From Candidatus Poribacteria bacterium (GTDB lineage Bacteria > Poribacteria > WGA-4E > PCPOR2b), in contig OZ244950.1 of NCBI GenBank assembly GCA_965222435.1, positions 1,707,273-1,771,272 on the forward strand: DNA of 64,000 nt, written 5' to 3'. Positions 4,414-38,756 of the stretch are shown one piece after another. Under the pieces are notes generated by a model, which worked only from the letters and a program-made list of their open reading frames with translations, searched no databases and was not told the DNA's origin. Each line of letters starts with the position of its first letter. Position 1 is the stretch's first letter. The translations under genes and the position numbers were made by a program.

Positions 4414-5979
4414 ATGAAGGGAAAGAAAAAATCGTTACGGTTGGGGCGTGTCTTGTGCACTCTCCTTATGGCGTCGTTGATTCTCCTACTCTGCGGAATA
4501 CCGGTGGCAAATGCACAAACGTCCCAGCAAATCGCCAAAAAAGCACTAGCAGCGACGGTGCTCTTAGTCATGGAAGACGCTAATAGCCGGCCGCTTTCAA
4601 TCGGTAGTGGATTCTTCGTGCAACCCAACCAGATTGTAACCAACTTTGACGTTATCGAAGGTGCCGTTAAGGGCTACGCAAAACGCGTGGGTGAAAAAAC
4701 GAAACGCGACATTGAAGGTGTCACCGGATTTGACGAGCAAGGGACTCTGGTTATACTAAAGGTGTCGGGCTCTGATGTTCAGCCGCTTCCCCTAGGCGAT
4801 AGTAACAAGGTTGGGATTGGTGAGACCGTTTATGTCGCGAGCAATCCAAAAGGAGATTTGGAAGGCACATTCTCGAAGGGCCTTATTAGTGGACTTCAAG
4901 GGGATTCAACCAACAAACAACTCCAGATGACGGTTCTGATTTATCCAGCGAGTAGTGGAGGTCCCGTGCTAAACGGAATGGGTGAAGTGATAGGTGTTTC
5001 GGTGGCAACCTTCCGCAGAGGGCAGAATCTTAGTTTTGCCATTCCTTCAAACGATCTCACAGCACTCGCCGCTACAGTTGGCCCCGCGATACCGTTGTCG
5101 AAATGGCAACAACTTATGTCTTCCGCTATAGGCAATTTGAAGGGGATTTTTAGCGATTATAAGGGTGCTATCGCTGACTTGGACACTGCTATCCGACTTG
5201 ACCCTGATAATTTCTTTGCTTACTTTAACCGGGGAGTTGCCAAGGGTGAGTTGGGTGATTATAAGGGTGCCATCGTTGATTTTGATACCGCTATCCGACT
5301 CAAACCCGATTATGCCGCTGCCTACTTTAATCGGGGAACTATCAAAGTAAAATTAGGACAACACTTCGCCGCTATCGCCGACTATGATACTGCTATCCGA
5401 CTTAAACCCGATTATGCCAAAGCCTACGATAGTCGGGGGACTGCCAAGGCAGCATTAGGACAACATTTCGCCGCTATCACCGACTATGATACTGCTATCC
5501 GACTCAAACCCGATGGTGTCATTGCCTACTTTAATCGGGGAACTACCAAGGCAGAATTAGGACAACACTTCGCCGCCATCGCCGACTATGATACTGCCAT
5601 CCGACTCAAATCCGATTATGCCGCTGCCTACGGTAATCGGGGGATTGTCAAGGCAGAATTAGGACAACACTTCGCCGCTATCACCGACTATGATATTGCC
5701 ATCCGGCTTAAACCTGATAATGTCATTAACTACCTTAATCGAGGAAATGCGAAGGCAGAATTAGGACAATATTCCGATGCTATCACTGACTACGATACCG
5801 TCATCCGACTCAAATCCGATTTTGCCAAAGCCTATTATAATCGGGGATTGGCAAAGTACGGCTTGAGTCGGTCCATGGAGGCAAAGCAAGATTTTCAAAC
5901 GGCATTGAAACATGCGGATCAGGCTGGCGATGCGCTTCTCAAAACCCAAATTGAGTCGGCGATTCGAGACCTCCACTAG
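4414..5979 (+). CDS. secreted trypsin-like serine protease with C-terminal TPR repeats
   Basis: N-terminal signal peptide; S1-like motifs (GSGFFV, PASSGGPVLN); about seven consecutive 34-aa TPR units (AIADYDTAIRLKPDYAAAYFNRG...). Confidence 0.65.
   Translation: MKGKKKSLRLGRVLCTLLMASLILLLCGIPVANAQTSQQIAKKALAATVLLVMEDANSRPLSIGSGFFVQPNQIVTNFDVIEGAVKGYAKRVGEKTKRDIEGVTGFDEQGTLVILKVSGSDVQPLPLGDSNKVGIGETVYVASNPKGDLEGTFSKGLISGLQGDSTNKQLQMTVLIYPASSGGPVLNGMGEVIGVSVATFRRGQNLSFAIPSNDLTALAATVGPAIPLSKWQQLMSSAIGNLKGIFSDYKGAIADLDTAIRLDPDNFFAYFNRGVAKGELGDYKGAIVDFDTAIRLKPDYAAAYFNRGTIKVKLGQHFAAIADYDTAIRLKPDYAKAYDSRGTAKAALGQHFAAITDYDTAIRLKPDGVIAYFNRGTTKAELGQHFAAIADYDTAIRLKSDYAAAYGNRGIVKAELGQHFAAITDYDIAIRLKPDNVINYLNRGNAKAELGQYSDAITDYDTVIRLKSDFAKAYYNRGLAKYGLSRSMEAKQDFQTALKHADQAGDALLKTQIESAIRDLH
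5150..5870 (+). repeat. tandem ~102-bp repeats encoding TPR units
   Basis: Near-identical 102-nt units visible at nucleotide level (gctatccgactcaaacccgat... recurring), in-frame within the protease gene. Confidence 0.6.
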
Positions 5980-7112: not shown

Positions 7113-8246
7113 ATGTTAAAAATTATTGACAACGGCATCATTTCCCACCAGAAAGAGCGGGGAGCGTACATGCCCGTGATCACCCCCCTCACAGACGGTA
7201 GTTTCATCGCCTGTCAGCATGTCGGGCAGGGGCTAGGCACACCGGACAATCATATCGAGATACTTCGTTCAATGGATGGGGGCGCAACATGGGTCAATGA
7301 AGGGAGCATCCATCCCGGCGGCACGCCTATTGCTTTGAATCCCGATGAAATCGGGGCGGACGGATGGTCTTATCGGGGTCCAAAGATTAGCGAGGTTCCA
7401 GACGGTCGCTTGGTGATGAACGCTACCCGTTTCGAGAACGAGGGCGGCACGCTCTTTGACACGGAATCGGAAGCCTTGCAGCGTCCGGAGATTCTGCTGT
7501 TCTGGTCAGAAGATCAAGGCAAAACGTGGTCAGAACCGCAGGTCGTGCCGGTAGACCTACCGCCCGAAAAATACACATGGAACGGGGCTGGACCTCTCTT
7601 GCAACTCGTGCCGGATCGGTGGATGTACCCCCTCGAAACGTGGAAGCCCGAAGGCTATGAAGGTCCTCCCGATCAGAAGGCAGCGGCTGTATTCTCCGCA
7701 GATCAGGGAGAAACGTGGGGAGAGTTCACCGTCGTCGCAGATGACCTCACAGGCGCGTTGCTCTGGTGGGATCAGATGTGCGCCTTGTTACCGGATGGAC
7801 GCATCTATACCCTAATCTGGACGCACCAGTACGGAACCTCCGAGGACTTGACGAACCACTGGGTGATCTCTGAAGACGGTGGACGTACTTGGTCCGAACC
7901 CCGACCGACAAATCTGCGCGGTCAGGTCTGCACCCCCATCCCGCTGCCCGACGGTCGCGTGGCGGCAATCTACAATTTCCGACACGAACCCCAAGGCATC
8001 CATGTGGCACTGACCGAAGACCTTGAGAATTTCGACGTAGAGAACGAGGTCGTGGTCTTTGATGCAGGAAAAGAGGCAACCCTCGGCGAACCTGAGAACG
8101 AGAACTTCCTCGCTGAACACATGCAGATCGCTTTTGGCAAGCCCGGTGGGACAACCCTGCCGGACGGGGATGTGATGACCTATTTCTGGTGTACTGTGGC
8201 GGGAGTCACCCATACGCGCTGGGTGAAATTGCGATTGGAAGGCTAA
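7113..8246 (+). CDS. BNR/Asp-box repeat protein (sialidase-like glycosidase)
   Basis: Four Asp-box motifs S/D-x-D-x-G-x-T-W (MDGGATW, DQGKTWSEP, DQGETWGEF, DGGRTWSEP). Confidence 0.65.
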   Translation: MLKIIDNGIISHQKERGAYMPVITPLTDGSFIACQHVGQGLGTPDNHIEILRSMDGGATWVNEGSIHPGGTPIALNPDEIGADGWSYRGPKISEVPDGRLVMNATRFENEGGTLFDTESEALQRPEILLFWSEDQGKTWSEPQVVPVDLPPEKYTWNGAGPLLQLVPDRWMYPLETWKPEGYEGPPDQKAAAVFSADQGETWGEFTVVADDLTGALLWWDQMCALLPDGRIYTLIWTHQYGTSEDLTNHWVISEDGGRTWSEPRPTNLRGQVCTPIPLPDGRVAAIYNFRHEPQGIHVALTEDLENFDVENEVVVFDAGKEATLGEPENENFLAEHMQIAFGKPGGTTLPDGDVMTYFWCTVAGVTHTRWVKLRLEG

Positions 8247-8253
8247 TAAAAGG

Positions 8254-8309
8254 GAAACCGAGTTTTTTCCCCGGTCACGGGATCCTCTCGGACTTGAAAA
8301 CTCGGTTTC
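8254..8309. terminator. palindromic hairpin (gaaaccgagtttt...aaaactcggtttc) followed by T-rich run
   Basis: 13-bp inverted repeat with extended loop, 8 nt after the BNR gene stop, then tttctttctt; member of a recurrent hairpin family (see 12439, 33510). Confidence 0.4.
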
Positions 8310-8381
8310 TTTCTTCCGCTATCGGTTTTTGTTGTATGCTTTCTTAACACGAGCTAGCAATGATAGAAAGGAACAGTTCAG

Positions 8382-9143: not shown

Positions 9144-9199
9144 AGGTTAGGGCTTGTGCATTTCAGTTCCAAAAGTGAGGTCGGACGCAGACTTCGCTG

Positions 9200-9343
9200 A
9201 TTTTCGCAGATTGCTTTGAACCCCGATCTCATCGGGGAAAAACAGAAAGGCTCATATAAAAAGAAAGTGCAAAATGCGAAGCGAAATTGTAGGGGCGGGG
9301 TCTCCCCGCCCGTAGTACGGGTTGGGGGACCCAACCCCTACAA
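9200..9343. repeat. composite intergenic repeat block (hairpin repeat + GTAG-flanked palindromes, REP/BIME-like)
   Basis: ttgctttgaaccccgatctcatcgggg at 9200..9226; gtagg-ggcgggg...ccccgcc-cgtag followed by gggttggg-gga-cccaaccc-ctac; homologous copies elsewhere in window. Confidence 0.5.
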
Positions 9344-9401
9344 AAACTCGGTTTCTGTTGCACGATTTCTTAACACGAGCGACCATTAATAGGAGTGAGC
9401 G

Positions 9402-12423: not shown

Positions 12424-12438
12424 CAACACTGTGCGGAA

Positions 12439-24366: not shown

Positions 24367-24755
24367 CAGGAGGAGGACTAATACTTTAACGTGAGCTGCT
24401 AGACTCTATTGACATTTAACAGGAGTGTAAGTCGAAGATTCTCGGAACGGGGTTGAGTTGAACGGGAATCTGAAACCCAACACCATAACCGTAGGTCGAG
24501 CAGCTTGTCCGACTTAAAACCCCAGTTGCTTTGAATCCCGATCTTATTGGGGCGGGGCAGCAAGTGTATAGAAAATCAGACGCTGCATACCTAAAACTTC
24601 AGTTGGTTTGAAACTCGATCGCAGCATCGGGCCGAGGCAACATGTGTTTAGTCATTTCTAGCAGTTGTTGAGCATGGAAACTCAACCTCAGCAGGTCGTG
24701 GTGGAAATCATTTGACATGATGGCTCGACTTGGATTGACAAATCCACAGAGGAGG

Positions 24756-25202: not shown

Positions 25203-27143
25203 CTATTTTAGAATGACCATCTTGCGCATTGCATAAAAATGGTCTGCTTGTAACTGGTAAAAATAAACGCCACTTGCGACTGATTCCCCGCTTTCGTTGT
25301 GCCCATCCCAATACGCTGCGCTTGTCCTATCTGTGTAGTAGCCCGGCTGCTGATACCCAAAATCTAACTGACGCACCACTACGCCTTGAGGGTCGTAAAT
25401 GGTCAGCGTCACATCGGCAGCGTGGGCAAGGTGATAGGGAATCCATGTCTCTGGGTTGAATGGATTGGGATAGTTTGCAAGCAGTACAGTTTTGTGGGGT
25501 ATAAAGGGCAGAGAAACGTCCTGTAAGGCAGCGCGCAGTTGGTTGAGATTGGCAATACCTTGCCGGAAAGCGAACGAACCATCATCTGCGGCGTGCGCCA
25601 TATCAATCCACTTTTGAATCGTTGCGGGGTCAATCCCGAACGTTTGCCATGCAAGCCCGCCGGGAGCCAAGGGGGTCGTTGCGCCCCCCAAGTGTTGAGC
25701 AACGGTGATGAGGTCAAAAATATTAACTATTCCATCGTTGTTGACATCCGCTTGGGGGTGGGCTTGACCAAAGTTTTGGCCCACCAGAACCAGATCCAAG
25801 ATATTTACCAGCCCATCCCCATTGAGATCATAATCCGATTCAACGACAATCTCAAGGGCGTGAATCCCGATATCAATCTCCTGATCGAAAAGTGTACGGA
25901 AGTCGACGTTGTGGAGGCTTAACTCCCCTTTTCCAGCCGCCCTTGCTTGAAAGGTTACTGACAGCAGTACATCACTGATCTGGAAGCAGTCCGCACCCAA
26001 CTCCATATTAACGCCGGTGATTCTGCCTGCCGCGTTGTCAATAATGCCCTCTTGAAAGACAGATTGGCTGCATCCATTATCGAGAGAAATATAGGTGCCT
26101 TCATCGACTTGAAGCGCGACAAGTACGCCGGGTGTGAACGCAATATCAAGTTCCCAACCCTCTAAAAGCAGAAAACCATCCAGATGGAGATTGAGTTTAA
26201 ATATCTCCCCAACACGAACTTGATCGATCAAGGGAAAGAAAAGGTGTGTACTTCCCACCCGAACCCCTCGATCCGAAAGGGCTGGAATATGTGTGTTGAT
26301 GGAGATGTCGCTTAGCGGGTTATCATCTACAACAACCTTATCTCCACGATCAAGCCCCATGTTTGCTACCAAGGGTGACAGATCCGATATTCCGTTGTTT
26401 TCAAGCCATAGCTCTTTCAGATTGGTCAAGCCCACCAAAGTCGATATATCCGCGAGACCATTGTGATTAAGATTCAAATCTGTCAAGTTCGTTAAAGCTG
26501 CTAAAGGCGATATATCTGTGATCGCATTATAGCCAAGATATAGGTCTTTCAGATTGGTCAAGTCCGCTAAAGGTGATATATCCGTGATGGCGTTGAAGCC
26601 GAGACTCAGATTTGTCAGGTTTGTCAAGCCTGCCAATACCGATATGTCAGTGAGCGCATTGTCAATAAGATATAAGTATGTTAGGTTTGTCAAGCCCATC
26701 AACGCTGATATGTCTGCGATAGGGTTGGAGCCAAGCCATAGGTCTGTTAGATTGGTCAAGCCCGCCAAAGGCGATATATCTGTAATGGTGTTGGAACCAA
26801 GATGTAGATCTGTCAGGCTCGTTAAGGTTGCCAAAGGCGCGATGTCCGATATCGCATTATCAGAAAGAAACAGCGTGTCTAGGTTGGTTGCGGACTCAAG
26901 TCCGGTCAAATTGCGGATTTGAGAGTTAAACCCGAAGATATAGGTCAAACTCTCCATCTCCGCCACAGTAATTGTAGCACCGGATGCCTTGCCAAGTTCT
27001 TCCTCCACCAAAGCGCGGAGGTTGGGGTCGGGTATATCAACGATTTGGGCAGATACCAAGTCCACTCCTATTATTGTAACGGAACAGACTATTGATATTG
27101 CTATTATAATGATTCTCATTTGAAATTTTCTGATCCTATTCAC
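25203..27143 (-). CDS. secreted leucine-rich-repeat protein with dockerin-like repeats and T9SS-type C-terminal sorting domain
   Basis: Signal peptide; at least 8 LRR units of 22 aa (LxxLTNLTxLxLxxNxIxDISPLA); two dockerin-like DxNxDGxVN repeats; C-terminal YPNPFNPET...GVYFYQL...KMVILK tail. Confidence 0.65.
   Translation of the reverse strand: MNRIRKFQMRIIIIAISIVCSVTIIGVDLVSAQIVDIPDPNLRALVEEELGKASGATITVAEMESLTYIFGFNSQIRNLTGLESATNLDTLFLSDNAISDIAPLATLTSLTDLHLGSNTITDISPLAGLTNLTDLWLGSNPIADISALMGLTNLTYLYLIDNALTDISVLAGLTNLTNLSLGFNAITDISPLADLTNLKDLYLGYNAITDISPLAALTNLTDLNLNHNGLADISTLVGLTNLKELWLENNGISDLSPLVANMGLDRGDKVVVDDNPLSDISINTHIPALSDRGVRVGSTHLFFPLIDQVRVGEIFKLNLHLDGFLLLEGWELDIAFTPGVLVALQVDEGTYISLDNGCSQSVFQEGIIDNAAGRITGVNMELGADCFQISDVLLSVTFQARAAGKGELSLHNVDFRTLFDQEIDIGIHALEIVVESDYDLNGDGLVNILDLVLVGQNFGQAHPQADVNNDGIVNIFDLITVAQHLGGATTPLAPGGLAWQTFGIDPATIQKWIDMAHAADDGSFAFRQGIANLNQLRAALQDVSLPFIPHKTVLLANYPNPFNPETWIPYHLAHAADVTLTIYDPQGVVVRQLDFGYQQPGYYTDRTSAAYWDGHNESGESVASGVYFYQLQADHFYAMRKMVILK
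26380..26900 (-). repeat. tandem 66-bp LRR-coding repeats
   Basis: Repeated units visible at nucleotide level within the LRR gene. Confidence 0.5.
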
Positions 27144-27484
27144 TTTTGTCCCCCTTCATTTTTCATCAACTATAATGATGCAACATTTGTCAAGCCTATC
27201 ACAAGAAAAACGTGGTATTCCACAGGGTATGTTGACATTTTACTGTCGCTAATTCGGGAGATGCTAGAATCATCCCTCTATCTGTCAAAAACCGAGGCGG
27301 TTATCCGAAATTACCTCAAGTTGCTTTAAATCCCGATCTTATCGGGGGTGTATTAGGTCAAAGACTCTCGGAACGGAGATTGATTCAATCTGTCAAATGT
27401 CAATAGAACTGAGTAAAAAAATGAAATCACAGATACCACCAATCTGCCATCTTAATTAGTAAGCCAACCGATACAAGCAAAAAC

Positions 27485-37893: not shown

Positions 37894-38472
37894 TCAAGTT
37901 AAATCTTCCCGCCTCTGATACAAAAGGTCCATAATCTCCTGTAACAGGGGAGAATCGTCAAAACTTCGATAATTCCAAGGATTTGTCCAAAATTCGTCCA
38001 GCGATCGATAGCCAATCTTTTCGTATTCCAAGACCTGAATCATCAGTTCAAGTTTATCGGCAGCCCGTACCAATTTCCCTTCAACAGATGTACCTTCCTC
38101 AAACTCAGCCCAAAGTTGGATATATTTTTGTTGGAGTGGTCCAAAGCGTTCAAACATTGATTCAACAGCAGCCTGTTCCCCCGCTGCCTTGACTTCTTCG
38201 GGGATATATTTGAGGGTTGGAAAGGGCAGATCTCCAATCCGTGCTTCAGCGACCTCGTGCAACAATGCGAGGCGCATCACTTTTTCCACGTCCAGCGGAA
38301 CGCCCTGCTCCGTCAACACATCCGCCAGAATCATCGACAAAAGTGACACTCGATAGCAATGATCTGCGATACTCTCAGCATCTTTGATACCGCGAAAACG
38401 CCAGCCGGTGCGCGGCAGGTTCTTGAGAACGCCAATTTCTTCAATGAAATCTAATACAGCTTGTGCATTCAT
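37894..38472 (-). CDS. HD-domain phosphohydrolase (YfbR-like)
   Basis: HD motif region (DHCYRVSLL...HEVAEARIGD); first gene of the HD-pyrR-pyrC cluster. Confidence 0.6.
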   Translation of the reverse strand: MNAQAVLDFIEEIGVLKNLPRTGWRFRGIKDAESIADHCYRVSLLSMILADVLTEQGVPLDVEKVMRLALLHEVAEARIGDLPFPTLKYIPEEVKAAGEQAAVESMFERFGPLQQKYIQLWAEFEEGTSVEGKLVRAADKLELMIQVLEYEKIGYRSLDEFWTNPWNYRSFDDSPLLQEIMDLLYQRREDLT

Positions 38473-38492
38473 CAGTCACCAAATCAGGGCAT

Positions 38493-38524
38493 AAAAAAAG
38501 CCTCCCCTACAGAAAGAGGGAGGC
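38493..38524 (-). terminator. intrinsic-terminator-like hairpin plus U7 in the leader of the HD-pyrR-pyrC cluster
   Basis: Minus-strand gcctccc-loop-gggaggc followed by ttttttt, about 20 nt upstream of the HD-gene ATG. Confidence 0.4.
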
Positions 38525-38756
38525 ACTTAACCATTCAATAGTTTTTGAGATATGGGAGTAACCGTAAATCATGTGTGATACCCTTTCCTAACCTCGCGGG
38601 ATCAGATTAAAAGGGAAAATTCTTCCATGTACGCCGCTGCCATTAAAACCGTTTTAAGTGTAGCACAATTGATCTATTTTTGCAAGAGAAATGTTGACCA
38701 TTGACATCGTGCGAAAATTCTGCTAAACTTAATCCCATCATTAAAATCAGGACTTA

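Follow-up and report, generated by a model that had tools for sequence, protein, structure and literature searches.

A tiny hairpin element, probably mobile, inserted in frame in a sialidase-like gene of Candidatus Poribacteria

The stretch of DNA analysed here (64,000 nucleotides (nt) of the Candidatus Poribacteria contig OZ244950.1, referred to as a whole as the window) carries, on its plus strand, an open reading frame (ORF) that encloses a complete copy of a short hairpin repeat. All other copies of this repeat in the window are intergenic, lying between long ORFs. The gene and the unit inside it are as follows.

7113..8246, plus strand: host gene, encoding a 377-amino-acid (aa) six-bladed beta-propeller of the BNR_2 / sialidase family (orthologs 368 aa), recognised from the ORF, Pfam, homologs and a structural model.
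7330..7356, plus strand: 27-nt hairpin unit TTGCTTTGAATCCCGATGAAATCGGGG, an in-frame insert by 27-mer match, by its indel against orthologs and by a covariance model (45.8 bits).

The 27-mer occurs only once in the window, and the ORF translates it as I73-A-L-N-P-D-E-I-G81 (codons 7329..7355). An exact 17-mer, TTGCTTTGAATCCCGAT, is found again at 24526..24542 (plus strand) and 46731..46747 (minus strand). The original prediction, i.e., that a copy of an intergenic hairpin repeat sits within this gene, holds in all respects but one: sequence, stem, shared 17-mer, translation and position in coding DNA are confirmed, but its coordinates (7321..7347) were nine bases too low. It had also held that a 17-nt match was unlikely to arise by chance, and the counts agree: six window sites lie within three mismatches of GTTGCTTTGAATCCCGAT (7329, 9210, 24525, 24602, 27320, and 46748 on the minus strand) where shuffles lead one to expect 0.13, and the core-plus-hairpin pattern TTTGAANCCCGAT-N2-9-ATYGGGG is matched four times against an expectation of 0.00. 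Shuffled window sequences gave no match at all to the 27-mer or to this pattern.

Searching a large protein collection with the host protein returned 1198 homologs, of which the 120 listed ones were aligned. The best of them (P0001) has 368 aa against 377 aa in the window protein, and the peptide IALNPDEIG is absent from the alignments of all 19 selected homologs and of all 120 listed ones. Homologs devoid of the insert reach down to 67% identity and include proteins whose source names are Latescibacterota and Acidobacteria. The exact 377-aa window protein is on record in both NCBI and ENA; it falls in a 90% identity cluster of 411 proteins, and among the 15 listed every other full-length protein has 368 aa. 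The nearest protein of the cluster (P0254) is 97.3% identical, has an empty site and reads GGTP-TDGW. Two loci, L001 (encoding P0001) and L119 (encoding P0254), are syntenic with the window over genes for DUF2971, the BNR protein, three PhyH proteins and a GFO/IDH/MocA protein. In the DNA of both syntenic orthologs (97% and 94% protein identity) the empty site reads ACCCA^CGGACGG, to which the window adds exactly TTGCTTTGAATCCCGATGAAATCGGGG, and the DNA alignment with L001 and L119 reveals no target duplication. Because the flanking bases permit no shift of the gap, the inserted ends are fixed as TTGC... and ...GGGG. An ancestral ACG (Thr) codon was thereby split into A|TT ... GGG G|CG, with a gain of nine codons read as IALNPDEIG(A). 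These comparisons support the 27 nt at 7330..7356 as a recent in-frame insertion in this lineage, one of the options raised in the original prediction, and the distant relatives do not conserve the segment. Another option, that the repeat family derives from coding sequence, fails for the host gene, which cannot be the source since its orthologs lack the segment.

Judged by domain and predicted fold, the host protein is a sialidase-like beta-propeller, in agreement on both counts with GH33-type sialidases / BNR_2 propellers. It matches Pfam BNR_2 at 2.4e-14, and its AlphaFold2 model (homolog alignment as input) has a mean predicted local distance difference test score (pLDDT) of 83 and a predicted template-modelling score (pTM) of 0.84. 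Foldseek places the model closest to 5hx0 and to sialidases from bacteria and humans, at template-modelling (TM) scores of up to 0.74. Only residues 71-81, i.e., the insert, fall below pLDDT 50; they belong to a loop that links strand 61-65 to strand 85-94, at a position where the alignment shows homologs to differ in loop length. In the model, the nine residues IALNPDEIG look like a tolerated surface loop.

The unit has the form TTGCTTTGAAT-CCCGAT-loop-ATCGGG-G, i.e., an 11-nt head (TTGCTTTGAAT) followed by a hairpin with a 6-bp stem, 26-27 nt in all. Across 70 non-redundant hairpin-bearing copies, the head and the CCCGAT/ATCGGG stem are almost invariant and the loop is variable, its length setting that of the unit (26 nt in 27 copies, 27 nt in 38). 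A covariance model built solely from 27-nt units outside the window recovered five strong copies (40-48 bits) within it and, at 24601, a degenerate one, and no further window copies. The coding copy, at 45.8 bits, scores within the range of the four intact intergenic ones, which are listed here together with the degenerate copy.

9211..9237, plus strand: intergenic copy TTGCTTTGAACCCCGATCTCATCGGGG between two PhyH genes (40.2 bits).
24526..24552, plus strand: intergenic copy inside a hairpin repeat that we call host b, CCCCAG[unit]CGGGGCAGC (48.1 bits, 17-mer, fold).
24601..24632, plus strand: degenerate copy GTTGGTTTGAAACTCGATCGCAGCATCGGG, 77 nt downstream of the copy at 24526 (13 bits, three mismatches in the 18-mer, fold).
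27321..27347, plus strand: intergenic copy TTGCTTTAAATCCCGATCTTATCGGGG between two minus-strand genes (47.0 bits).
46722..46747, minus strand: 26-nt copy TTGCTTTGAATCCCGATTTATCGGGG in the intergenic region that separates an ankyrin-repeat gene from a dehydroquinase II gene (41.9 bits).

A scan for TTGCTTTRAAYCCCGAT in one genome per species yielded at least 115 stretches. Among the matches listed, most of those with the 3' stem arm belong to Candidatus Poribacteria, many per genome, and those from other phyla have no such arm and represent coding ...ALNPD... motifs, e.g., in ABC ATPases. Diverged copies occur in relatives of the genome of locus L043 (L117 at 25-53 and 1600-1628, L118 at 68-96, all on the minus strand); copies of this kind, such as CAAG TTGTTTTTAGTCCCGATCCCATCGGGG, score 25-27 bits, and the family is therefore old as well as recently active. 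At the gathering threshold, Rfam has no match at any window copy, and a relaxed search gave only a spurious 13.7 bits near 24411. A known structured RNA family was accordingly rejected, the intergenic copies moreover lying in both orientations to genes. We found no description of this Poribacteria family in the searchable literature.

Apart from single intergenic sites, the unit interrupts at least five distinct hairpin repeats, always with the same TTGC...GGGG ends, and each of these host repeats is also frequent in uninterrupted form in the same loci.

Interrupted host repeat, GTAG-headed and similar to repetitive extragenic palindromic (REP) sequences: GTAGTAGGCATA^CTCCGTATGCCGTAAC.
Interrupted host repeat b: AAAGCCCCAG^CGGGGCGACATGT, with about 40 empty copies in other Poribacteria loci.
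Interrupted host repeat: GGGCGGGGCAAG^ATGCCCCGCC.
Interrupted host repeat: CGCTACTACAAA^CTGAAGTGCGTAAC.
Interrupted host repeat: CTTTCGCTCCAG^AGGAGCGCAATGT.

Host b is the most abundant context (CCCCAG[unit]CGGGGC). Within host repeats the unit usually occupies the apical loop, and the flanks of copies are more often mutually complementary than shuffled partners, with duplex energies of -10 kcal/mol or lower in 26% of cases versus 6%. An uninterrupted copy of one host repeat, host d (CGCTACTGCAAACTGAAGTGCGTAAC), lies in the window itself at 2217-2242; the 27-nt unit interrupts host d in L063 and L114.

Close relatives differ in the copies that they carry. In the 21 kb of L001 and of L119 that are syntenic with the window, there is no strong copy to match its two. 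One of these, at 9211..9237, belongs to a piece of DNA specific to the window: L119 and L001 both have a much shorter spacer at the orthologous place, with no strong copy in either. Genomes like that of L119 seem poor in the unit, and that of the window seems rich in it. The window spacers 8247-8381 and 9144-9401 measure 135 and 258 nt, their counterparts in L119 (11108-11133 and 11896-11942) 26 and 47 nt. Given that this difference between the window and L119 consists entirely of repeat elements, spacer growth by repeat accretion must be fast in this lineage.

Nine copies lie in credible genes. Insertion is proven for three, i.e., the window gene and the genes of loci L043 and L065; those of L061, L077, L050, L090, L089 and L003 are candidates, chosen for a long ORF or for domains that can be recognised. 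The GFO/IDH/MocA gene of L043 (Poribacteria, OZ244825.1) carries VALNPDTIG within its Rossmann domain, a peptide absent from 119 of 120 homologs, including orthologs at 85-88% identity; the empty site in DNA is CTCAAG^CGGAAG. Compared with solved structures, this oxidoreductase has its insert at a place where loop length is widely variable among distant homologs. The acetyl-xylan-esterase-like gene of L065 reads VALNPDLIG at about residue 335 of 426, a peptide found in none of 30 homologs (one at 93% identity included), and its empty site is TTCAAG^CGGATG. In L003, a leucine-rich-repeat (LRR) protein reads ...AFAQ[VALNPDPIG]VVDIPDPNLR (5879-5905), where an LRR homolog in the window (25203-27143, minus strand) reads ...VSAQ|IVDIPDPNLR. 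From this comparison it is probably a fourth in-frame insertion, just past the signal peptide; it is kept as a candidate since homology begins only after the insert.

All nine in-gene copies are in sense orientation, with the first base of the unit at codon position 2 and the reading (Q)(V/I)ALNPDxIG, and all have a 3-nt loop and are thus 27 nt long. As for antisense copies that seemed to lie inside ORFs, the one in L053 is a chance match outside Poribacteria, and the rest are confined to the opening 8-33 codons of a guessed ORF and so probably precede its true start. Because intergenic copies have no bias relative to flanking genes (17 co-oriented, 15 anti-oriented), the bias within genes is best explained by selection. 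A copy within a gene needs a length divisible by three, and the sense phase-0 reading of the unit contains TGA. We infer that purifying selection leaves in genes only copies that are 27 nt long, sense and in phase 1, and it appears that only the turn-like NPD...G reading is tolerated in proteins.

The 70 copies also reveal a preference for certain sites. On the left, C stands at -4 in 58 of 70 copies, followed by A/C, A/G and, in 52 of 70, G at -1; on the right, CGG is present in 17 of 70 copies against about one by chance. The gene targets may be summarised as CA(A)G^CGGA (n = 3), where L043 and L065 have CAAG^CGGA and the window site itself has CCCA^CGGA. As the empty sites already hold these bases, they are a matter of target preference and do not belong to the mobile unit. 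None of the three filled/empty gene comparisons has a target duplication. Targeting of hairpin loops was considered for the gene sites as well and rejected: folded as single-stranded DNA, the three empty sites gave z-scores of -0.2 to -1.6, which are not significant.

Based on this evidence, we consider it about 85% probable that the segment is a recent insertion of a Poribacteria-wide, non-autonomous mobile hairpin element of 26-27 nt that inserts precisely, prefers certain targets and is tolerated in frame. On this account, a member of the family inserted recently, precisely and without duplication at CCCA^CGGA inside a Thr codon. The 27-nt unit, being stop-free in the given orientation and phase, would then be read through as nine residues in a surface loop of the propeller, which is why the gene would have stayed intact and the allele persisted. 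The element itself would be non-autonomous mobile DNA with fixed ends, a C(A/C)(A/G)G^CGG target, a copy number that varies between close relatives and intergenic targets that often lie in the apical loop of another hairpin repeat. Filled and empty sites, compared base by base, document the insertion, its exact ends, its recurrence in genes and repeats and the target motif; frequent nesting in hairpin loops and a lineage-specific expansion are likewise shown. As to the agent, HUH transposases (REP/RAYT, IS200/IS605) insert without duplication beside a short specific sequence, and by analogy the unit may be moved in trans by an enzyme acting on hairpin-forming single-stranded DNA, e.g., an HUH-type transposase of the REP/RAYT or IS200/IS605-like kind.

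Several observations weigh against this account. No transposase or other candidate enzyme adjoins any copy in the 64-kb window, and a 27-nt unit with a single hairpin has neither the two distinct ends of IS200/IS605 nor the classical GTAG tag of REP sequences. The empty gene sites have no significant fold, so that hairpin-loop targeting leaves the gene insertions unexplained. About four of the six frames of the unit are stop-free, and the restriction to a single phase therefore goes beyond stop avoidance and is only partly explained. Finally, three gene insertions are proven and the six others are candidates.

An unlikely alternative, though one to be taken seriously, is that template switching during replication or repair, or short-patch gene conversion, copies the unit, with CAAG/CGG microhomology guiding the switch out and back. 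Hairpins do provoke template switching, the three empty gene sites already hold the common copy flanks CA(A)G and CGGA, host b (CCCCAG[unit]CGGGGC) supplies plentiful donors with such flanks, and no transposase was seen near any window copy. Nevertheless, 3-4 nt of microhomology is very little to guide a pair of coordinated switches to a distant donor, and the left flank at the window site is CCCA, not CAAG. Moreover, the ends TTGC...GGGG are identical in flanks that do not match, for instance GGCATA^CTCCG in host a, GCAAG^ATGCC in host f and ACAAA^CTGAAG in host d. Beyond the mobile element favoured above, we tentatively propose, as a possibility that we would not yet bet on, that Poribacteria possess an active, enzyme-driven insertion system for this single-hairpin unit of 26-27 nt, directed without duplication to C(A/C)(A/G)G^CGG and to hairpin loops and repeatedly adding (V/I)ALNPDxIG loops to proteins; it would be among the smallest mobile DNAs known.

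The original prediction had also raised exaptation. In that case, the nine residues would have brought a new, selected property, for instance in binding or regulation, to the sialidase-family protein. In its favour, the insert leaves the ORF open, the coding copy matches its intergenic counterparts in preservation, and the peptide (V/I)ALNPDxIG recurs in unrelated proteins. Yet these unrelated enzymes carry it at unrelated positions, as expected of a tolerated passenger and not of a function, and the insert is recent and specific to one lineage: among the cluster members read it is present in one genome only, and the relative at 97.3% identity does without it. Nothing else in the model drops below pLDDT 50, and the loop that holds the insert differs in length among homologs; we thus regard a selected function as very improbable.

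It could further be argued that a precise deletion or excision removed the 27 nt from the relatives, given that presence and absence alone carry no direction and that some hairpin-ended elements excise precisely, or that the 27 nt are an assembly artefact. A single gain in one lineage is far more parsimonious with 120 listed homologs lacking the insert, down to 67% identity; the exact protein is on record in NCBI and ENA, and a random assembly error would not yield a perfect family member in frame. We therefore give this possibility almost no weight. Hardly more credible is a coincidental resemblance to ordinary coding sequence, or a coding origin of the family: ALNPD is a common motif (TPR proteins, ABC ATPases), nearly all listed 17-mer matches outside Poribacteria are coding ...ALNPD... 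stretches of conserved genes, and the repeats of a TPR gene in the window encode LKPD...NRG (weak model matches of about 7 bits at 5305 and 5509), but the listed non-Poribacteria matches lack the 3' stem arm, window shuffles give no match, the host gene is no source since none of its orthologs has the segment, intergenic copies are found in either orientation and within other repeats, and nothing in the data supports an ancient origin from a TPR-like gene fragment.

Elements of comparable size are rarely documented. SDR4, SDR5 and SDR6, small dispersed repeats (SDRs) of Nostoc and related cyanobacteria, are 21-27 nt long and reportedly insert precisely inside HIP1 (Elhai et al. 2008, Genome Res 18:1484). 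They resemble the Poribacteria unit in being very small (21-27 versus 26-27 nt), dispersed, mostly intergenic and differently present in related genomes. With three genes and five host repeats compared, our unit fits the SDR type, i.e., it is shorter than 30 nt, inserts precisely and nests in other repeats. In behaviour the Nostoc SDRs are its closest analogues, as far as a comparison by description goes. They belong to another phylum, their sequences seem to be unrelated, and the Poribacteria unit differs in having a target motif, C(A/C)(A/G)G^CGG, derived from true empty sites and in its recurrent in-frame gene insertions. Nostoc small dispersed repeats are cited in PMC4390886 and PMC3116915.

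Rickettsia palindromic elements (RPEs) are likewise palindromic, lie in frame in genes and are translated as an extra peptide compatible with the fold (PMC10969869). In-frame translation is common to both, but size and taxon separate them: RPEs measure about 100-150 bp, encode some 30-50 residues and are specific to Rickettsia, whereas the Poribacteria unit has 27 nt and nine residues, is mostly intergenic and nests in the loops of repeats.

REP sequences and REPINs are elements of RAYT (Y1 HUH) transposases and form GTAG- and CGTC-tagged superfamilies (PMC3116915, PMC3733652). In REP sequences, a conserved GTAG or CGTC tetranucleotide tag adjoins the palindrome (PMC3733652), and the replicative unit of REPINs is an inverted doublet (PMC3116915). 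Our unit shares with REP sequences the short length (20-40 nt), the hairpin, the high copy number, the mostly extragenic location and the absence of target duplication, and it is indeed a short palindrome in many dispersed copies (five intact ones per 64 kb). Its head TTGCTTTGAAT contains neither GTAG nor CGTC, the GTAG heads being those of separate host repeats, and copies are singletons, the sole adjacent pair in the window (24526 and 24601) being direct and 77 nt apart and not an inverted doublet. The unit is rather a guest inside REP-like hairpins, and the same genomes carry GTAG-headed REP-like hairpins (host a). At 9293-9347, the window has a REPIN-like inverted doublet of GTAG-headed, GC-rich hairpins (GTAGGGGCGGGGTCTCCCCGCCC ... 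GGGTTGGGGGACCCAACCCCTAC), and a similar doublet is present in the orthologous spacer of L001 and absent from that of L119. The sequence of this doublet suggests that REP/RAYT-type elements are also active in these genomes.

HUH transposons of the IS200/IS605 and IS91 groups, and their miniatures, cause no target duplication, use a short specific target and have a hairpin in the element end. They have two different structured ends and measure at least about 100 bp even as miniatures, whereas the whole Poribacteria unit consists of one 6-bp hairpin and an 11-nt head. The left flank CAAG reads CTTG on the other strand, one of the IS91 target tetranucleotides; we mention it as a lead. Miniature inverted-repeat transposable elements, with terminal inverted repeats, target-site duplications and about 50-500 bp, are a poor fit for 27 nt whose ends TTGC.../...GGGG are not inverted repeats and whose insertion leaves no duplication. 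Two further candidates were rejected. A CRISPR-like mini-array at 24526/24601 was discarded because Tandem Repeats Finder and a direct-repeat scan found no array of the unit in the window, the copies are scattered over both strands and the one at 24601 is degenerate; an integron attC-like site, suggested by a G^TT junction, was discarded because G^TT occurs only at the left junction, the right one being G^CGG. Fungal mitochondria contain double-hairpin and GC-cluster elements, which resemble the Poribacteria unit in being tiny, proliferating in intergenic DNA and occasionally lying within coding regions with the frame intact; they are organellar, and their sequences are unrelated. Sponge mitochondria, too, harbour repetitive hairpin-forming elements (PMC2800124), with the same likenesses and differences. 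The Poribacteria unit is, in sum, a new family of a known but rarely documented kind, that of very small mobile hairpin repeats.

The surroundings of the copies are rich in other repeats, and the intergenic regions are mosaics of several families, one module of which adjoins TTGACA-like promoter hexamers. One module (AAGTCGAAGATTCTCGGAACGG...) stands beside unit copies at 24429-24453, 27355-27379 and 46766-46790, another (AAAACAGAAAGGCTCATATAAAAAGAAAGTGCAAA...) at 9239-9285 and 46623-46669. Next to the host gene, at 8257-8310, lies a hairpin repeat (GAAACCGAGTTTTTT...CTTGAAAACTCGGTTTC) that is also found at 12431 and 33502. The loop of the 8257-8310 copy holds an extra 24 nt (CCCCGGTCACGGGATCCTCTCGGA), which the orthologous repeat of L001 (11110-11143) lacks, and L119 lacks the entire hairpin. 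By this comparison, the 24 nt look like a tiny hairpin insertion that is again nested but of a second kind.

Eukaryote-like repeat proteins are abundant in the window. They comprise ankyrin paralogs, an LRR/dockerin protein (25203..27143, minus strand) and a TPR protein (4414..5979, with 102-nt tandem repeats). Three tandem units of about 1.3 kb at 43985-46606, 81-96% identical, encode the ankyrin-repeat paralogs (44061..45239 and 45337..46536). On the minus strand, at 38491-38618, Rfam recognises a PyrR binding site (RF00515) at 54.5 bits, just over the gathering score of 54; it lies upstream of minus-strand genes from 37894..38472 onward.

The window site offers a clean filled/empty comparison, inside a gene, for a repeat unit that ranks among the smallest known to insert themselves, in a candidate phylum of which we know no cultured representative. 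Together, the three gene insertions and the nested insertions define the exact ends and the target motif, the data needed for an enzyme search. Such units lengthen the spacers between close relatives and can mislead gene-based comparison and annotation. They also represent a route by which proteins may gain short loops from selfish DNA, as with RPEs in Rickettsia, but on the scale of nine residues.

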